Assembly (NCBI GenBank): GCA_964558215.1
Contig: CAZLDE010000001.1
Location: forward strand, 1 to 28,934
DNA: 28,934 bases
Source: an uncultured Thermoplasmatales archaeon
GTDB taxonomy: Archaea; Thermoplasmatota; E2; DHVEG-1
Direction of reading: 5' to 3'
A program made the position numbers and the translations under genes. Below the pieces are notes generated by a model. The model made no database searches. It was given only the letters and a program-made list of their open reading frames with translations, and was not told where the DNA came from. Of the stretch, positions 11,609 to 19,961 are shown in pieces; within the stretch, counting starts at the first letter, position 1, and every line of letters begins with the position of its first letter.

Positions 11609-12754
11609 TTACGAAGTAAGAACCATGGGATGAATCGGAAGAGGGGGTGTGACATTTCCTAATCGTTTCAACGCGTCAAGCTTCTCCCGTTTACCGATTT
11701 TTGCTTGTTCCAGAGCATCTCCCAGGATCTGTATCGACCTTGCGTAGGTCGGAAGGTCAACCGGGTGAGGTACACCGTCTTTCCCCCCATGGGCAAATGT
11801 GTAGCGAATCGGATCCTCCCAAGAAGGTCGTCCACCATAGAGGAGATCCGAGATAAGTGCCAAAGCACGAATAGCCATCGGACCGACCCCATTCATCGCG
11901 AGAAGCTCCTCATAACTTGTTGGATGGATATCATAAATCTGCTTCATCCTCGCCCAATTAATCGACCGTGGCATATCCAGACGAGGTAAGAGAGCACTGC
12001 TCCGATGATGCCAAGACCAAGTATCTAATGTTGTCTGGTTCTTATGTTTTGTAACAATCGCCCAGTCTTCTCTAAGATGTACTGGATTATCATTGATCAG
12101 ATCGACAGAGATTTTCTGGGCAGTGGTGCTTTGTTTCGCGGTCATGTCAAGTACGTTTTCTTGTCGATCTTCCCCGATGATCGCAGTGTGAGGATCACAA
12201 ACAAAATTATTAACATCCTCTGATAACCAATGGTAACGACGGGCGTATCCGGTATCGTTATTCATCCCCTGCTGAATCACCATCCACCGTTTGGTTTCCG
12301 ACACAAGAAACACATGATGATACAGTCTATGGCCGTCTTGTATCGCTGTGCTATCAACCTTGGCGGCCATGCGGCTACAATACTGCAGACGATCAACAAG
12401 AGACGCTGAAAGATTGAGATTTTCAGCATATACCTTTATCTCTGCAAGGGTGTTTTGCGACGCTTTCCCCTTCCCGCCACACAACCTCACCCCAAGCTCC
12501 TCATGGTTCAATGCTTCTTTCAAGGCACCACAGGTGACCGTGGTAGTCCCTGATGAATGCCAATCATACCCAAGAACACAGCAGAACGCCTGAAACCAGA
12601 ATGGGTCAGCAAGCCTGCGGAGGAACTCATCAGCCCCATATTCATAAACAATGACCTTGGTGATTTCTCTGGAGAGGGCAACCATCCTTTTGAATAACCA
12701 CCGAGGTGCTTTTCCTGAATGAAGTGGAAGAGTAGCGACACCTGTCCTTCGCAT
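11609..12754 (-). CDS. DUF763 family protein
   Basis: Family motifs LPLHSGKAPRWL, DWHSSGTTT, GGKG, SRMAAKVD, YHH, QQGMN, ARRYHW and FAHGGKDGVP. The ATG at 12754 is preferred over TTG at 12760. Confidence 0.9.
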   Translation of the reverse strand: MRRTGVATLPLHSGKAPRWLFKRMVALSREITKVIVYEYGADEFLRRLADPFWFQAFCCVLGYDWHSSGTTTVTCGALKEALNHEELGVRLCGGKGKASQNTLAEIKVYAENLNLSASLVDRLQYCSRMAAKVDSTAIQDGHRLYHHVFLVSETKRWMVIQQGMNNDTGYARRYHWLSEDVNNFVCDPHTAIIGEDRQENVLDMTAKQSTTAQKISVDLINDNPVHLREDWAIVTKHKNQTTLDTWSWHHRSSALLPRLDMPRSINWARMKQIYDIHPTSYEELLAMNGVGPMAIRALALISDLLYGGRPSWEDPIRYTFAHGGKDGVPHPVDLPTYARSIQILGDALEQAKIGKREKLDALKRLGNVTPPLPIHPMVLTS

Positions 12755-12999
12755 AGTCAACTATGTTTTAGAGCAATTAAAGGTTATAATCTTTCATGGG
12801 AGATCAATGAAAGTATCAGTTTCCCTAATATGGGAAGATATAAAAAACCATAGTGTTTCTCAGAGTGCATAATATCAGGAGACTACCTAAAATTGCTACA
12901 AATAGTGACACAAGGAAATGCTTCTGGAAACAGGCATCGGTTTAATCCTTCTTCATTTATTTTAAGTGATATCAGCGAAAAAGAAAAGGAGCTGAAAAA

Positions 13000-14382
13000 A
13001 TGGAACATCCAGATTATCTAACGTATATGAAGAATTTTGATATGCATATGCAAAAATACTTCCCATCAAAAGAAGCTTGGACACCAGTTGATGATGCGTT
13101 ATACAAACCACCCGACCTGTTCCGCATCCCATTAAAAGAAGCATCTGAAATGCTTTTAAAATCCATGAAATACACCTTTGCTCTTCAGTACAACAACAAT
13201 AAGGTCTACCATACTTTCTGTAAAGAACGCGACTTCGCTCCAGATAACATTAAAACCGTTGAGGACCTTGATAAGATCCCTCTCATCCCAGATAACTTCT
13301 TCAAGGATTATCCCTCCGGGAAAGATTTCGCATTATGGCTCGGCAACCTGTTCACAGGGGATCTCCCCCGGGTTGTTATTAAACAAGCTAACCCGACCTA
13401 CGATGAGGTCATCAACGCTTTTAACGAGGCAGGCATGGCCGTCGCTTACAGCAGCGGGACGAGCGGGCGACACACGTTCATCCCACGGGATCAACGGACC
13501 TTCAATGTCTCCGAGTATGCCATTGCAAAATCCGTTATTTCCATGATCTACCCACTCTGGGATTATTCACTGCATGGCTATTTACTCATGCCCAACCCAA
13601 AGAAAACCAATGTGTACGCTGGAAAAGTCTGCACCGTGTATTTCGACGCAATCCATGATGTACGGGTCGCAATTGACCGTGATATCACCACAGAACTCAT
13701 CCGGATGACGATGACCGGCCAAAAAGGAGTAAAAACCAAAATCGTGAAATATTTCGCGAAACGGGAATCGGAAAAAATGATCAACGAGATCATCAAATGG
13801 CTGGAGCATCACGAGAAAACCAACGAGAAAATCGCGTTGGTCGGCGCTCCCTTCATCCTATCCTTTGTGATGAAAAAACTCCAGAAAGAAGGGAAAAGCT
13901 TTGATTTTGGTGAACGCGGTGGTGTCGGTACAGGTGGCGGCTGGAAAGCCTATGAAGGCGCTCGCGTACCTGTCGCAGAATTCCGCAAGCAGGTCGAGAA
14001 AGTCCTGGGCATCCCTGAAAAATTTTGCCTGGATATCTACGGCATGGTTGAGGGAAACGGTTGGATGGTCCACTGCCCAGAAGGCCATTACTTGCATGCA
14101 CCATATTCATATTATAAACCCCTTGTGCTTGATTCGGAGTATAAACCAGTGGGGTACGGGGAATGGGGACGCTTTGCGTTCCTTGATGCTGCCGCGTACA
14201 GCTACCCTGGTTTCATCATCTCTGGTGATAAGGTCCGCATGCTTGAGCACTGCCCAGTCTGCGACCGTCCAGGACCAGTCCTTGAACCAGAGGTGAAACG
14301 GGCTGCCGGTGAGGAGATCCGCGGATGTGCCGAGGAGTTACGCAGGATGCTTTCTGCAGATCTTGGGAAGGATACGAAATAA
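13000..14382 (+). CDS. luxE: LuxE/PaaK-family acyl-protein synthetase (adenylate-forming ligase)
   Basis: YSSGTSG P-loop, LDIYGMVE, YPGFIISGD and a C-terminal EIRGCA motif (Cys443); AGGAG SD upstream. The symbol is a family label only; no lux operon is in the window. Confidence 0.82.
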   Translation: MEHPDYLTYMKNFDMHMQKYFPSKEAWTPVDDALYKPPDLFRIPLKEASEMLLKSMKYTFALQYNNNKVYHTFCKERDFAPDNIKTVEDLDKIPLIPDNFFKDYPSGKDFALWLGNLFTGDLPRVVIKQANPTYDEVINAFNEAGMAVAYSSGTSGRHTFIPRDQRTFNVSEYAIAKSVISMIYPLWDYSLHGYLLMPNPKKTNVYAGKVCTVYFDAIHDVRVAIDRDITTELIRMTMTGQKGVKTKIVKYFAKRESEKMINEIIKWLEHHEKTNEKIALVGAPFILSFVMKKLQKEGKSFDFGERGGVGTGGGWKAYEGARVPVAEFRKQVEKVLGIPEKFCLDIYGMVEGNGWMVHCPEGHYLHAPYSYYKPLVLDSEYKPVGYGEWGRFAFLDAAAYSYPGFIISGDKVRMLEHCPVCDRPGPVLEPEVKRAAGEEIRGCAEELRRMLSADLGKDTK

Positions 14383-14383
14383 C

Positions 14384-15364
14384 ATGCTGACACCCTGGGA
14401 AATCAAAAAAAAAGAAATGGTCCCTCCACGTCATATGATTCAGATGAATGTCGGAGGCATATTTTTTCTTCTAAAAATGCTGTTGATGAACCTAGGGACA
14501 CTCAAAATGCTCAAGAACCAGGAAAAAAACATTTACACCCGACCATCACCAACCTATACCCTGCCGATCCTTACAGCGGAAATGAAGAAAAATCATTCGG
14601 AAGAGAAGTACCTCAGACCTACGTTGTTTTGTAACTGTCGAGCCCCCGAGATAATCGCAGTAGCCCACGAGCTTGGCGCCTATAAAAAAACAGATCAAAA
14701 GTATGCTGAGGCGGCTTTTGAGTTTGCAAAAAGGAAAATTATCCTTGAAATGGTTCCATTGGACGATGTCGATGCAGTATTACGTCGAGGCACGGGGACC
14801 TGTCTGCATAAGATCTCTGTCTTTATCGCCCTCTGCCGAGCCGCTGGGATACCGGCACGGTACAAGTTCTTTGCTCTGACCATGCTGGAAAACTGGATGG
14901 GGCCTGCGCTTGACCGGGCACCGCTTATGAAACAGTGGTATGACGCGATGGGGCATTTCTTGCTGCATGGTGAAGGAGAGGCCTATATCAATGGAAGATG
15001 GATCACTGCTGATGTTGGTGCAGAGCCACAGCGACAAGCAGCAGCATGGATTCCGGTGACAAAACTAGGGGAGGACTCTGCTGGACTGTGGTTATTCCCA
15101 ATCCCAGGGACGATTTTCCAGAGAGAATCCATCCCGCTTGGTCTTGGACTCCCATCTCAACTTCTTATGAAGCGGTTGGTGCCAAACTCTGTGGCTGGTA
15201 TAAATATTGGAATTTTGGAACAAATCGAGAAAGGCAGAAAGATAATTGAACAAGCAGGTGGAGAAGCAGCGTATGACGCGGAGGCTCGGAAGAGACGCAC
15301 ACAGATGGCAACGAAAACAGAGCTACTGAAAAACCATGAAAATATTGTTTTTGAGGGGAAGTAA
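14384..15364 (+). CDS. Cytoplasmic transglutaminase-like protein, paralog 1 (Cys-His-Asp)
   Basis: RRGTGTCLHK..ALCRAAGIPARY, LLHGEGEAY and WITADVG motifs. The ATG at 14384 lies 1 nt after the luxE stop; the track's 14309 start overlaps luxE. Confidence 0.85.
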   Translation: MLTPWEIKKKEMVPPRHMIQMNVGGIFFLLKMLLMNLGTLKMLKNQEKNIYTRPSPTYTLPILTAEMKKNHSEEKYLRPTLFCNCRAPEIIAVAHELGAYKKTDQKYAEAAFEFAKRKIILEMVPLDDVDAVLRRGTGTCLHKISVFIALCRAAGIPARYKFFALTMLENWMGPALDRAPLMKQWYDAMGHFLLHGEGEAYINGRWITADVGAEPQRQAAAWIPVTKLGEDSAGLWLFPIPGTIFQRESIPLGLGLPSQLLMKRLVPNSVAGINIGILEQIEKGRKIIEQAGGEAAYDAEARKRRTQMATKTELLKNHENIVFEGK

Positions 15365-16660
15365 ATGGAGAAGAAAAAACATCAGTATCTGCGGTATGTA
15401 AAATATTTTGGCCCCGGGGCGATCCTCGCATCGATGACCATTGGTGCAGGTAACATTGTGTTAGCTCCACGGGTTGGAGCATGGGCTATTCCTGCGTACT
15501 CAGCGTTATGGGTCATCACGTTTGCCCTGATCACCAAGGGTCTGACCGCTTATTTGGCGACCCGGTATTCGTTACTCTCCGGGGAACATATCATGTCGTT
15601 GTTTGCTCGCGTGCGTCCTCGGGGTTGGATTAATATCGTATCCATCATCATCGGGTTTGCATTACTCCCATTTATGATTGCGACGTTTCTGACAATCCTT
15701 GGCAACGTCCTAACATTGTTTACGAGTGTCGGTAATTATTTTATCTGGGGAGTTGGCATTGGACTTCTGATAGCTTTTTTCGGGTTCTTCGGTACGCTTC
15801 GTATCATGGAAATCGTTCAACTGGTCTTTGCCGTGTTTCTAGCTATTGGTGCGATTGTCGCAGTCATGGTTGTCAATCCCGAATGGCTGACGGTCATTCA
15901 AGGGTTAGTGACGGTTCAGGTCCCCCGAGTTGCTACATGGGTCACTGCCGAGGATATCATCGCAGTACCAATCCTACTTCAGATGGCAGCGGTGTACGGC
16001 ACGATGAATGGGGTATACTCAGATTTTACTGCATATATCGCCTGGTGGAGACAAAAGACAAATGAGAAAAAAATCTCCCTGAAATCAGAAGCGTTCACCG
16101 GTATGAAAGTAGATTTGTTCCTCTCTCTTCTGATTGTCGCGATTTTTACCATTGCGTTTATGGTTGCTGGAGCTGTAATCCTTGGTCAGAAACAAATCGT
16201 CCCCAACGGCGTCGATCTTATCTCGGCGCAGCGCGAGATTTACGCGACAATCAATCCGTTCATTGGAATGTATCTGTATCCTTTGGCTGTGCTGGTGGTT
16301 ATCGGTGGAACGATCTATGCAGGGATGGACGCAGTACCTAGGATGATTAAGGCATGGGCTGATCCGATTAGCGCACGGGTACAAAAAATCACGTTTAAAC
16401 GTTTCAAAGGATATATCGTCCTTTATCTGCTTCTCGTCAGTCTTCCCTTGATGGTCATTGAAAAACCGATTATTCTGATGACTCTATATCTGCTGTTGAC
16501 CGGTGTGTTTGGCATGTGGCTTCTTGGATGGGGTGCCCTCTGGGCAAACCAACGTCATCTGCCAAAAGAAGAGCGGATCGGAAAAGGGATGTTTCTTATC
16601 TATGCAGTCAACAACGTCATCGTCACTATCTTCATTGTTGCTATCCTGATTATCCGATGA
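15365..16660 (+). CDS. Nramp/APC-superfamily (YcsG-like) membrane transporter
   Basis: About 11 hydrophobic segments and an N-terminal FGPGAILASMTIGAGN motif; abuts the upstream stop codon with no gap. Confidence 0.75.
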   Translation: MEKKKHQYLRYVKYFGPGAILASMTIGAGNIVLAPRVGAWAIPAYSALWVITFALITKGLTAYLATRYSLLSGEHIMSLFARVRPRGWINIVSIIIGFALLPFMIATFLTILGNVLTLFTSVGNYFIWGVGIGLLIAFFGFFGTLRIMEIVQLVFAVFLAIGAIVAVMVVNPEWLTVIQGLVTVQVPRVATWVTAEDIIAVPILLQMAAVYGTMNGVYSDFTAYIAWWRQKTNEKKISLKSEAFTGMKVDLFLSLLIVAIFTIAFMVAGAVILGQKQIVPNGVDLISAQREIYATINPFIGMYLYPLAVLVVIGGTIYAGMDAVPRMIKAWADPISARVQKITFKRFKGYIVLYLLLVSLPLMVIEKPIILMTLYLLLTGVFGMWLLGWGALWANQRHLPKEERIGKGMFLIYAVNNVIVTIFIVAILIIR

Positions 16661-17639
16661 TATCTTCTCTCCGGTGATACCATCTGACGAGATCATCAAT
16701 CGTCGAAGTCACGGTATATCGTGGTTTGTAGTGTAGCTCATGTTCTGCTTTTGTTATGTCCAGCTGACGTGCATGCCCAAGGACTTTCACCTTATGACGC
16801 GTGAAAGGAGGGTTTTGTTTCCTGCGAAGAGCCCATAAACCTTCAATGAGGCTTGCAAGGACATATGCTCCAAGATAAGACCGGTGTGTCTTAGGAGTAG
16901 GGACATGAATTTTTTCTGCAAGCGCCTCGATCAATTGTTTCGGGGTGCTATCAAAACTCTTCACATTATATACCTGGCCAGCTGCGTTGTCGGTTTCACC
17001 AGAGAGACGCAGACAAGAGGCGACGTCACGGCCATCGGAGATGGAGATCTGTTGTTGTCCGTTTCCGATATAGAATAATCTTCCTTGTTTGAGTGCTTGA
17101 ACCAGGAAAGGGGTAATTAACGAATCACGGGGACCAACTACCAGTGGTGATCGAATCGCTGAAACCGCCATGTCATATTTCTTTCCATACGCCCAGATCA
17201 ATTGTTCAGCTCGTAGTTTTGATTCCCCATATTTCGCGGTTGGTTTTTTCTGATACTCTTCTTTGATTGGCATGGTTGTTTTTGGGAACCCGTACACTGC
17301 AGCCGAGCTCATGAATACGAACCGTGGGACCTTGTTCTTAACGCATGCGTCAAGAAGGTTTTTCGTTCCATCGACATTGATGTCGAAAAATGTTTTCTTC
17401 GGGCCCCAATCCCGTGGGAGAGCAGCAACGTGAAACACCACATCAACATGTTCACATGCGTGGACCAGGGACTCTGGGTCCGTGAGATCACCGAGAGAAA
17501 AAGAAGCTTTTTTTCCTATGAGCGCTTTCGTAGAGCTTGTAGTTCGTCGCAACACCCGTACTTCATAACCCTGTTCTATGAGCTCATCGGTGAGGTGACT
17601 GCCGATAAAGCCTGTTCCACCGGTTACCAGCGCCTGCAT
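16650..17639 (-). CDS. Extended SDR: NAD-dependent epimerase/dehydratase or 3-beta-HSD-like reductase
   Basis: ALVTGGTGFIG Rossmann motif, SSAAVYG and YGESK (YxxxK). The ATG at 17639 is preferred over TTG at 17651. Confidence 0.9.
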   Translation of the reverse strand: MQALVTGGTGFIGSHLTDELIEQGYEVRVLRRTTSSTKALIGKKASFSLGDLTDPESLVHACEHVDVVFHVAALPRDWGPKKTFFDINVDGTKNLLDACVKNKVPRFVFMSSAAVYGFPKTTMPIKEEYQKKPTAKYGESKLRAEQLIWAYGKKYDMAVSAIRSPLVVGPRDSLITPFLVQALKQGRLFYIGNGQQQISISDGRDVASCLRLSGETDNAAGQVYNVKSFDSTPKQLIEALAEKIHVPTPKTHRSYLGAYVLASLIEGLWALRRKQNPPFTRHKVKVLGHARQLDITKAEHELHYKPRYTVTSTIDDLVRWYHRREDIIG

Positions 17640-17718
17640 GGAAAGGGACAATATCTTCTTGTTAAAAAACTCATTCAGAAAAGATAATATGCTCCTATTA
17701 TTTCATGGACGGATTAGC

Positions 17719-18696
17719 ATGGTAGGTCTTAGAGAGATAAAAGACAAGGGATATTTCCCACAAAAAACCTATCTCAAACTCATGATTGGTGGTGGTTTAT
17801 CCTTAACCAAGGTGTTACTGACATCCCCGGGTGATCTGAAAAAACTTCGGACGATCCATGGTTCCGCGGAGCGATACATCCGACCGAAACGACTCTACGA
17901 GTTACCTGTGTATGTAGAAGGGATGCGATGTGGTGTAACCGAGGAGAGGTACCTGAGACCGACGCTGTTTTGTAACCCGTGTGCACCCGAGGTTGTCGCG
18001 TTAGCACATCACCTGGGTGCCTTTCAGAAATCGGATTATGAGTTTGCGAAGGCTGCATTTGAGTTTACGAAGGAAAACCTTGATTTGGAAATCTGCACAA
18101 TGAACCCTGTGGAAGAGACTATCAGGCGGGGCACAGGAACCTGTTTTCATTTAATTACGGTGTTCATCGCACTGTGCCGTGCAGCAGGGATAAAAGCACG
18201 CTATAAGATGTTTGCGATGAATATGATTAAAGCATGGTACGATGTGCTTGTCGGAGCCGACCCTTTGGTGAAAAAATGGTATGATTCGATGGGGTATTTC
18301 ATGATTGAGGGTGAAGGAGAGGCGTTCATCGATGGCAGATGGGTCGTTGCTCATGTCGGTCCGACCGCGGAGCGGCAAGCTGCAGCAGGGATCCCCATTA
18401 CGAAGTTCGGGGAGGATTCTTTGGGTATTTGGTTCTTTGCTATTCCTGGGACGACCATGTATATGGAGTCGATGCCCTATGGGTTGGGCGGTGCGACGAA
18501 ACTGCTGAAACGGATAGCCCCTGGCTCGATGGAGCGGGTCAACATCAGCATCCAGCATCAGAATACGATGGGTAAAAAGATCATTACGGATGCCGGTGGG
18601 GAAGAAGCCTATGATGCGATGGCACGTAAGAAGCTGGGGCCGAAAGGGCCAACGGTAGAGCTTACGAAGAAAAGTCAAATCGTTTTTGGGGAGTGA
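17719..18696 (+). CDS. Cytoplasmic transglutaminase-like protein, paralog 2 (Cys-Glu-His at the triad positions)
   Basis: Colinear with paralog 1 (YLRPTLFCN, RRGTGTC, ALCRAAGI, RQAAA, GEDS, AGGE.AYDA.ARK). The ATG at 17719 is chosen because it gives the same length as paralog 1 and avoids overlap with the SDR. Confidence 0.85.
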   Translation: MVGLREIKDKGYFPQKTYLKLMIGGGLSLTKVLLTSPGDLKKLRTIHGSAERYIRPKRLYELPVYVEGMRCGVTEERYLRPTLFCNPCAPEVVALAHHLGAFQKSDYEFAKAAFEFTKENLDLEICTMNPVEETIRRGTGTCFHLITVFIALCRAAGIKARYKMFAMNMIKAWYDVLVGADPLVKKWYDSMGYFMIEGEGEAFIDGRWVVAHVGPTAERQAAAGIPITKFGEDSLGIWFFAIPGTTMYMESMPYGLGGATKLLKRIAPGSMERVNISIQHQNTMGKKIITDAGGEEAYDAMARKKLGPKGPTVELTKKSQIVFGE

Positions 18697-19961
18697 ACGT
18701 TATGCAAACCACCGAGCAGACACAGCCAAGTGTCTTTTTGAAACCCCGATCGAGACGGTATATCATTTACCTGGTTTTTTTTATGGGGATTGTGGCAATC
18801 ATGGATCAGTATCTTTCCATGGTCCCTATCACGTATATGAACTCCATCCTTGATGAATATTCAATGAGCGCCTCGCAGTTCTCATGGTGGGAGGCGCTGT
18901 ATTTGATTCCTACGTTTTTCATTTTCGCCCTCAACGGACTCGTTGATATTATCGGGAGAAAATTCTCCATTCTTGTTCTTGTCCTCATCATGGGATTGTC
19001 ATCGCTGGCTATCGTCCTTTTCACCCCAACGTTTCATCTCTTCATGGTCTTCTACGCGATCGTTACGTTCACAACCGTATCAAATATGTGGACGATTCCG
19101 ATTAGTGAAGAATCCCCAGCAAAAAAACGCGCGGAGCTTACCTCCATTGTGTATGTGATAGGGTTGTTTCCCCTCTCAGCCATCATACCTCTCTATGTTA
19201 TTCCGACACTCGGATGGAAGTGGATGTATGGGATCATGTTTTTCTTTATGATACCTGTTCTTGTCCTCTGGGTGTTCATGAAGGAAACTGGACGGTATGA
19301 GGAAATCAAAGAGGAACGCAAGTCTGGGAAATTGAAAAAGCATTTCTTTGGACTCGGGTCAATCAATCGAAGTGACATAAAATATATCTTTTTCTCTGCG
19401 GTTATTTGGCTATGCTGGCTGATTAATTCTCTTCTTATCATCCGCTGGATGGGGTATTATTTCATGGAGGTTCATGGGTATGCTCGGAGCGAATGGCTCA
19501 TGGTCTTTCTTGCTTCAGGCATCATGATGATCATCGGTGGTGTCGTCAGCGGATATGTCATGGACAAAATAGGGAGAAAAATCGGGTTTATCATCGGAGC
19601 AGCAGGGTTTGCTGTCTCCTTGTTTCTCATGTCGTTTGGACCAGTGCCGTTACTGCCTGTTTGGGGTGCTCTGACAGGATTTTTCATCGCATTTGCTTAT
19701 GCATGGGTCATCGTGTATATCCCAGAGATTTTCCCAACAGAGCGGAGAGGAACCTGTCTTGGTTGGACAACGACCGTGGCACGTGTCTCCTATGTTGTCG
19801 GACCCGTGATCGCAGCGGTGATGTTGGAAACAAATCCTACCATGGAATGGTTCTGGGTCGTGGGGGGACTGCTGATGATCCTTGCCATCGTTATTGTGGT
19901 CTTGTTCCATCCCTATGAGACCAAGGTTATGGAACTCGAAGAAATCGAGGTAAACCGGTAG
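18693..19961 (+). CDS. MFS transporter
   Basis: About 12 TM segments, motif A in both halves (GLVDIIGRK, GYVMDKIGRK), and EIFPTERRG. Overlaps the paralog-2 stop (GTGA); an alternative ATG lies at 18702. Confidence 0.92.
   Translation: MNVMQTTEQTQPSVFLKPRSRRYIIYLVFFMGIVAIMDQYLSMVPITYMNSILDEYSMSASQFSWWEALYLIPTFFIFALNGLVDIIGRKFSILVLVLIMGLSSLAIVLFTPTFHLFMVFYAIVTFTTVSNMWTIPISEESPAKKRAELTSIVYVIGLFPLSAIIPLYVIPTLGWKWMYGIMFFFMIPVLVLWVFMKETGRYEEIKEERKSGKLKKHFFGLGSINRSDIKYIFFSAVIWLCWLINSLLIIRWMGYYFMEVHGYARSEWLMVFLASGIMMIIGGVVSGYVMDKIGRKIGFIIGAAGFAVSLFLMSFGPVPLLPVWGALTGFFIAFAYAWVIVYIPEIFPTERRGTCLGWTTTVARVSYVVGPVIAAVMLETNPTMEWFWVVGGLLMILAIVIVVLFHPYETKVMELEEIEVNR

Follow-up and report, generated by a model that had tools for sequence, protein, structure and literature searches.

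Two genes of an uncultured Thermoplasmatales archaeon encoded related transglutaminase-fold proteins that differed at two of the three catalytic positions. They were located in a stretch of 28,934 nt on contig CAZLDE010000001.1 (hereafter the window; positions are counted along its forward strand). The first gene, TG1 (14384..15364, + strand, 326 aa), encoded the canonical residues Cys140/His195/Asp210, whereas the second, TG2 (17719..18696, + strand, 325 aa), encoded Cys142/Glu197/His212. Judging from comparisons across the protein family, the conserved Cys-Glu-His (C-E-H) set of TG2 was most likely a working alternative to the Cys-His-Asp (C-H-D) active site rather than a product of decay. 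As to how such a site may work, we gave an even chance to the reading that TG2 was an active Cys-Glu enzyme in which His212 would serve as a hydrogen-bond donor and which would accept an acyl group from a LuxE-like enzyme.

Both genes were identified from matches to the Pfam family PF01841, from their codons and orthologs, and from AlphaFold2 (AF2) models. The catalytic codons were read directly and all were on the + strand. In TG1, they were TGT for Cys140 (14801..14803), CAT for His195 in the canonical His slot (14966..14968) and GAT for Asp210 in the canonical Asp slot (15011..15013), the two slots being placed by a family profile aligned to the solved structure 3isr. In TG2, Cys142 was encoded by TGT (18142..18144) and lay at the N-terminus of a helix predicted by AF2 (142-155). 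The His slot was occupied by Glu197 (GAG, 18307..18309), inside a predicted strand (195-204), and the Asp slot by His212 (CAT, 18352..18354), directly past another predicted strand (207-211); the orthologs agreed on both. The start codons, ATG 14384 for TG1 and ATG 17719 for TG2, fitted the residue numbering of the initial annotation of this DNA. The TG2 reading frame was open upstream to ATG 17638, and some homologs were 335 aa long. Pairwise alignment of the two proteins gave 49% identity over 328 residues with 4 gapped positions, none of which fell in the hairpin segment. Thus, with six codons as expected and an ungapped hairpin, the initial annotation had been correct in assigning C-H-D to TG1 and C-E-H to TG2. 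Two residues past the catalytic Cys, both proteins had a His (His142 in TG1, 14807-14809; His144 in TG2, 18148-18150). Almost all TG1- and TG2-type proteins shared this His, whereas more distant LuxE-linked relatives had Asp, Glu or Gln; the two active-site states did not differ at this position.

Both proteins scored well above the Pfam gathering cut-off of 23 bits for PF01841 (Transglut_core), TG1 with 40.3 bits and TG2 with 39.8 bits. The match covered positions 4-107 of the 108 profile positions in TG1 and positions 3-75 in TG2, where it ended just ahead of the His/Asp part. When the PDB was searched with the family profile, the sole match was 3isr, a transglutaminase-like protease. The profile aligned the Cys helix to GVCRDFA and the segment H-x3-E-x6-W-x3-D to HACFEAYIGGNWIIFD of this structure, and therefore the two positions that differed between TG1 and TG2 were the canonical triad slots 2 (His) and 3 (Asp). 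A single-sequence search of the PDB gave no match, and NCBIfam had no model for TG1 or TG2.

The AF2 models were confident, with a predicted local distance difference test score (pLDDT) of 91.9 for TG1 and 89.1 for TG2. They shared the same architecture: the Cys was located at the N-terminal end of a helix, and the two strands of one beta-hairpin carried slots 2 and 3. Together with the fold searches, the models showed that both proteins had the papain-like transglutaminase core, with the Cys helix packed on a beta-sheet. Foldseek and VIA matched 3isr (E 3.5e-4, Z 10.6), factor XIII, the known enzyme transglutaminase TG2 (a namesake of the window gene) and PeiW. A wide fold search returned 67 chains at Z >= 2, with 50 matches listed; the fold neighbours included transglutaminase-like proteases, factor XIII, transglutaminase TG2, pseudomurein endoisopeptidases and arylamine N-acyltransferases (NATs). 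In comparison to canonical PF01841 proteins (3isr, factor XIII, transglutaminase TG2, PeiW/PeiP and TgpA), the core fold was alike (for factor XIII and transglutaminase TG2, Z was about 8). The catalytic Cys of both window proteins, Cys140 in TG1 and Cys142 in TG2, stood in the same G-x-C motif at the helix N-terminus. TG1 also kept the hairpin signature H-x3-E ... W-x3-D, whereas TG2 had Glu and His in place of its His and Asp. At the N-terminus about 90 residues and at the C-terminus about 70, modelled mostly as helices, were peculiar to the family of the window proteins, as was the partnership with a LuxE-like gene. Thus, by homology and fold, TG2 was a member of the PF01841 superfamily and a variant in its catalytic residues.

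The substitutions were stable among close relatives. In the best 120 relatives of TG2 (66-98% identity), 118 had C-E-H and the exceptions were one C-D-H and one C-E-R, while all of the best 120 relatives of TG1 (56-94% identity) had C-H-D. Free variation at the two slots among TG2 orthologs, a possibility raised in the initial annotation, was therefore not what we found. Across nine genomes carrying both genes, all from the window's genus, the ratio of nonsynonymous to synonymous substitution rates (dN/dS) was 0.072 for TG2 and 0.077 for TG1, and the mean dN was 0.132 and 0.166, respectively. Purifying selection on TG2 was thus at least as strong as on TG1. Simple decay of TG2, considered unlikely from the start, was rejected by these ratios and by the genome census described below; both slots were fixed within each clade and covaried throughout the family.

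This covariation was examined in a small family of 247 representatives at 50% identity, to which a third search, seeded with divergent members, added a clade of Halobacteriota-type archaea. The table of slot pairs comprised 341 full-length members. The Cys was invariant in all 341, including every protein with an acidic residue at slot 2 (the E-state). The most frequent pairs of slot 2 and slot 3 were E/H (170 proteins), H/D (126) and E/Y (24), followed by a deletion of slot 2 with D (10). The rarer pairs were E/Q, H/E and H/S (2 each), and H/N, K/D, E/C, E/R and D/H (1 each). Accordingly, a His at slot 2 was paired only with hydrogen-bond acceptors (Asp, Glu, Ser or Asn), and a Glu or Asp at slot 2 almost only with donors (His, Tyr, Gln, Cys or Arg). 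No E/D or H/H intermediates were present among the 341 members. Two distant paralogs among the extra genome copies seemed at first to be C-H-H and C-G-E, but these readings were tblastn misalignments, the true states being C-H-D and C-H-E.

Trees rooted on C-H-D outgroups gave the direction of the change. C-H-D was ancestral and C-E-H was derived in a well-supported clade (support 96/99 and 95-98), so the pattern did not represent a reciprocal swap between the two paralogs, as first described, but a replacement of C-H-D by C-E-H. Moreover, a group of seven members nested inside the C-E-H clade had gone back to His at slot 2, accompanied by Asn, Asp or Glu (support 99/95). Forcing these seven revertants together with TG1 was rejected (difference in log-likelihood 260; approximately unbiased test, p ~1e-4). 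The two slots had thus changed together at least twice, once in each direction.

Further positions followed the state of the active site in both directions. Glu199 of TG2 (18313..18315, + strand), which would face His212 across the strands according to the hairpin register, was invariant in the E-state only (170 of 170 C-E-H and 24 of 24 C-E-Y proteins). The corresponding position was variable in H/D forms (Glu in 94, Ala in 16 and Gln in 9) and relaxed again in the revertants. Similarly, the residue following the Cys was aromatic in the E-state and aliphatic in the H/D forms and most revertants.

Two smaller groups departed from these states. In a subclade of ten proteins (P0413, P0482, P0260 and seven others), a 7-residue deletion removed the His/Glu slot while Cys and Asp were kept, and Asn replaced the His located two residues past the Cys. 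Such proteins may have arrived at a third kind of active site, or may truly have lost their function. A single distant representative, P0327, seemed to carry Gln at slot 2 and His at slot 3, possibly a further independent change; the genome scan found no relatives of it, and it remained a lone unverified sequence.

The genomic context connected the family with LuxE-like enzymes. The conserved unit was a LuxE-like gene directly followed by a transglutaminase-fold gene. In the window, the LuxE-like gene (13000..14382, + strand), assigned to the acyl-protein synthetases or adenylate-forming enzymes by a library match and comparison with relatives, was followed by TG1, whose ATG lay 1 nt past the LuxE-like stop codon. 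In related genomes, the place immediately downstream of LuxE was held by orthologs of TG2. The family was present in 93 of the 151 genomes of the sampled class. In ten high-quality genomes of this class there were 2-5 copies per genome, most of them preceded by a LuxE paralog of their own. Copies of either state, C-H-D or C-E-H, occurred directly behind LuxE, and for 25 of the 36 copies a LuxE match was located on the same short locus.

Single-copy genomes were particularly informative with respect to the C-E-H form. A single family copy was found in 29 genomes, and 21 of these copies were at least 63% identical to TG2. Nine such genomes were read directly, and in each case the copy was C-E-H and adjoined LuxE. 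Their gene orders were LuxE, TG2 and a gene for an Nramp-like transporter; LuxE, a short-chain dehydrogenase/reductase (SDR) gene on the opposite strand, TG2 and a major facilitator superfamily (MFS) transporter gene; or LuxE, TG2 and the MFS gene. Even within the window's own genus, 5 of 14 genomes had one match only, and the two that were checked (G009 and G063) had C-E-H and no TG1 on their loci. In another genus, g6, C-E-H and C-H-D copies were located in one cluster behind a single LuxE gene, the tandem C-H-D copy not being an ortholog of TG1.

In the window itself, the order was LuxE, TG1, Nramp-like, SDR (minus strand), TG2 and MFS, so that TG2 was separated from LuxE by three genes. 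The window LuxE-like gene was 77-85% identical to those located immediately upstream of the C-E-H form in genomes where TG1 was absent, and it looked like their ortholog. For this reason, the window arrangement represents a derived state of this LuxE-TG2 cluster. A contig with a 78%-identical TG2 had the same gene order without the Nramp-like gene.

From the observed states, conservation, covariation, selection, fold and gene context, we infer the side-chain geometry, catalytic competence, residue roles and substrate of TG2 as follows. In the canonical fold, an imidazole forms the bridge between the thiol and the carboxylate of the Asp. In TG2, Cys142, the presumed nucleophile, is retained, and the carboxylate of Glu197 would take the place of this imidazole, bridging the thiol and a donor at slot 3. 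The donor, His212 in TG2 and Tyr or Gln in sister lineages, would orient and tune Glu197, assisted by Glu199. In this scheme, Glu197 would serve Cys142 as general base and proton shuttle, a role also put forward for Cys64-Asp255(-His274) of microbial transglutaminase (MTG). The neighbouring LuxE-like enzyme would activate an acyl group, either as acyl-adenosine monophosphate (acyl-AMP) or as an acyl-S-LuxE thioester, and this group would be loaded onto Cys142 and subsequently moved to an acceptor, most likely an amine. Such a ping-pong mechanism would resemble that of transglutaminases and NATs.

The closest functional precedent was MTG of Streptomyces mobaraensis (1IU4). It is similar to TG2 in that it has a Cys nucleophile, an acid in the His position and a His in the acid position. 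Its Cys64/Asp255/His274 overlap the Cys-His-Asp triad of factor-XIII-type enzymes (PMC6265872, PMC2777024). Cys and Asp are taken as the catalytic pair, the D255A variant is inactive (PMC6265872, PMC2777024), whereas variants of His274 remain partly active towards a protein substrate (PMC2777024, PMC6265872). With an acid in slot 2 and a His in slot 3, TG2 agreed with this arrangement at the level of sequence positions. Still, there were clear differences. MTG has Asp where TG2 has Glu; it is produced by bacteria as a zymogen, is secreted and has no LuxE partner. No sequence relationship between them was detectable, so TG2 may work in a similar way but was not a member of the MTG family. The MTG arrangement is read as convergence, whereas that of TG2 arose by divergence within the PF01841 family from a C-H-D ancestor.

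The proposed reaction type had counterparts in NATs and NAT-type amide synthases (4guz, 7qi3 and GdmF, 8oom), whose papain/transglutaminase-like fold aligned over 170-200 residues (Z 6-7.6) and which perform ping-pong acyl transfer through an acyl-Cys. Bacillus cereus NAT3 (4dmo), with Cys-His-Glu, showed that slot 3 can tolerate Glu. In contrast to what we propose for TG2, NATs draw the acyl group from coenzyme A (CoA) thioesters and retain the slot-2 His, and no sequence similarity to them was detected. In the lux system, LuxE hands an acyl group to a Cys of LuxC. The LuxE-LuxC fatty-acid reductase is thus similar to the archaeal pair in placing a LuxE-family gene beside a partner with an essential Cys, although here the partner was a transglutaminase-fold protein and not an aldehyde-dehydrogenase-type reductase. 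By this analogy, the acyl group would pass from the LuxE-like enzyme to Cys142 of TG2. A literature search found no paper on LuxE-linked transglutaminase-like archaeal proteins or on this family. Searches for Cys-Asp variants in transglutaminase-like proteins and for Streptococcus pyogenes TglA were likewise empty.

Several points weighed against an active Cys-Glu site in TG2. Only two clearly independent coupled switches were resolved, and an independent-pairs sign test (2 of 2 pairs in the same direction) was powerless. The conservation and purifying selection would also fit a conserved non-catalytic binding protein. The 50 matches listed by the wide fold search did not include MTG, and therefore the analogy with it was functional rather than one of homology; protein-glutaminase, which has an MTG-related fold, appeared in that search only at Z ~4. 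Furthermore, Kashiwagi et al. are reported to have placed Asp255 of MTG in the His position 'in this order' in 2002, and the backing for this order was otherwise indirect.

The initial annotation had suggested a permuted triad, and an inverted site with the MTG precedent remained the best reading of TG2. The role of the His was refined. In a true permuted triad (Cys-His212-Glu197), His212 would be the base reaching Cys142 from the neighbouring strand and Glu197 would take over the former role of Asp. Such an arrangement was compatible with the 99% conservation of His212 in TG2 orthologs and with the AF2 models, in which slots 2 and 3 occupied neighbouring strands of the same hairpin. Nevertheless, in the sister clade slot 3 was occupied by Tyr (24), Gln (2), Cys or Arg while the slot-2 Glu was unchanging, and Tyr and Gln are poor bases. 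Because slot 3 varied and the Glu was constant, Glu197 rather than His212 was the probable partner of Cys142, with slot 3 holding the orienting donor. Canonical geometry also puts slot 2, not slot 3, beside the Cys. We therefore regarded a His212 base as unlikely.

We judged it similarly unlikely that TG2 was a conserved pseudo-enzyme that bound the LuxE-like enzyme, its substrate or its product as a scaffold, carrier or regulator, without Cys catalysis. The loss of both the canonical His and Asp and the shortened Pfam match would be in line with this possibility, and the superfamily includes non-catalytic members among the fold matches, such as band 4.2 and Rad4/XPC. On the other hand, the Cys was kept in every E-state member, and the replacement residues were fixed as well and covaried with further active-site positions. 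The nested lineage that returned to H/D was also what one would expect of a site still in use. Moreover, in many genomes the C-E-H protein was the sole transglutaminase-fold partner of LuxE, and a pseudo-enzyme was hard to maintain since it was then the only possible catalytic partner.

Another possibility was that Cys142, Glu197, Glu199, Glu201 and His212 hold a divalent cation for catalysis or sensing in the E-state. The Cys, the His and the three Glu, all facing the same side of the hairpin, are typical ligands, Glu199 was invariant in this state only, and calcium-dependent relatives such as LapG have the same fold. Additionally, the usual downstream neighbour of LuxE and the C-E-H gene in relatives encoded a distant Nramp-like membrane transporter, located at 15365..16660 (+ strand) in the window. 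Against this, the match of the transporter to Pfam Nramp was weak (32 bits), and it was also found beside H/D copies (L053). From one related genome to another, the Nramp-like sequences shared only about 30% identity; the gene nonetheless kept its place behind the LuxE-transglutaminase pair, and its substrate may not be a metal. Gln or Tyr at slot 3 would suit a hydrogen-bond donor better than one fixed metal geometry. We considered a metal site improbable. Finally, that TG2 acted only together with TG1, in a heteromer or an obligate two-step relay that split the labour between the two site types, was very improbable: the window's genus and g6 did hold both forms in one cluster behind a single LuxE, but the g6 copy was not orthologous to TG1, and the obligate heteromer suggested initially was excluded because C-E-H was the sole family member beside LuxE in many genomes, at least nine of which carried it directly after LuxE.

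The remaining genes of the cluster were less constant. The gene at 16650..17651 (- strand), divergent from TG2, encoded a nicotinamide adenine dinucleotide (NAD)-dependent SDR of the epimerase/dehydratase family and was a variable member of the cluster. In the window's genus and one sister genus, TG2 was consistently followed by the MFS transporter gene (18693..19961, + strand). Its GTG start overlapped the TG2 stop codon (18693-18696, GTGA), suggesting translational coupling of the two genes. A DUF763 gene (11609..12760, - strand) was located divergently upstream of the LuxE-like gene. It was also present there in several relatives of the genus (L001, L044 and L045), and may belong to the same cluster.

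Additional LuxE paralogs were observed outside the window. They formed arrays on a 2.58-Mb archaeal contig (ERZ25039515; L006:2415-10987 and L005:5199-15211), with four in succession, and transglutaminase-fold genes of the states C-E-Y, C-H-N and C-S-D lay between them. One transglutaminase-fold copy in these arrays was split into open reading frames (ORFs) of 180 and 154 aa, and another was truncated. This suggested that LuxE/transglutaminase-fold modules turn over rapidly. The genome of the window itself had a second LuxE paralog (G000 contig C2, L097:31-4311), 42% identical to that of the window and flanked by two ORFs with SCP2 lipid-carrier domains, followed by a LuxC-type acyl-CoA reductase. 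By its gene content, this locus was a fatty-acid reductase cluster of the lux type, here in a member of the Thermoplasmatota.

Cys-His-Asp triads are usually held fixed, and loss of the His is read as the mark of a dead enzyme. Here, loss of the His was regularly compensated, and the compensated form was conserved across a wide range of archaea and was reversed at least once. We thought it plausible, though somewhat short of an even chance, that one family contained two interconvertible polarity states, His-to-Asp and Glu-from-His/Tyr/Gln, that both were competent, with switches in both directions and without single-step intermediates having survived, and that the Glu state was the main LuxE partner in an archaeal route of acyl transfer that has not been described. 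Should the Glu form prove active, automatic calls of pseudo-enzymes in the papain/transglutaminase clan would need care, and the unusual site of the microbial transglutaminase used in industry would acquire a homologous, divergent counterpart whose canonical sister is encoded by one and the same genome. If both states are competent, TG1 and TG2 would be a natural homologous pair in which Cys-carboxylate chemistry can be compared with Cys-His-Asp chemistry, for example with respect to transfer and hydrolysis. The two proteins would then also provide a handle on the function of the widespread, multi-copy pair of LuxE and transglutaminase-fold proteins in Thermoplasmatota and Halobacteriota.

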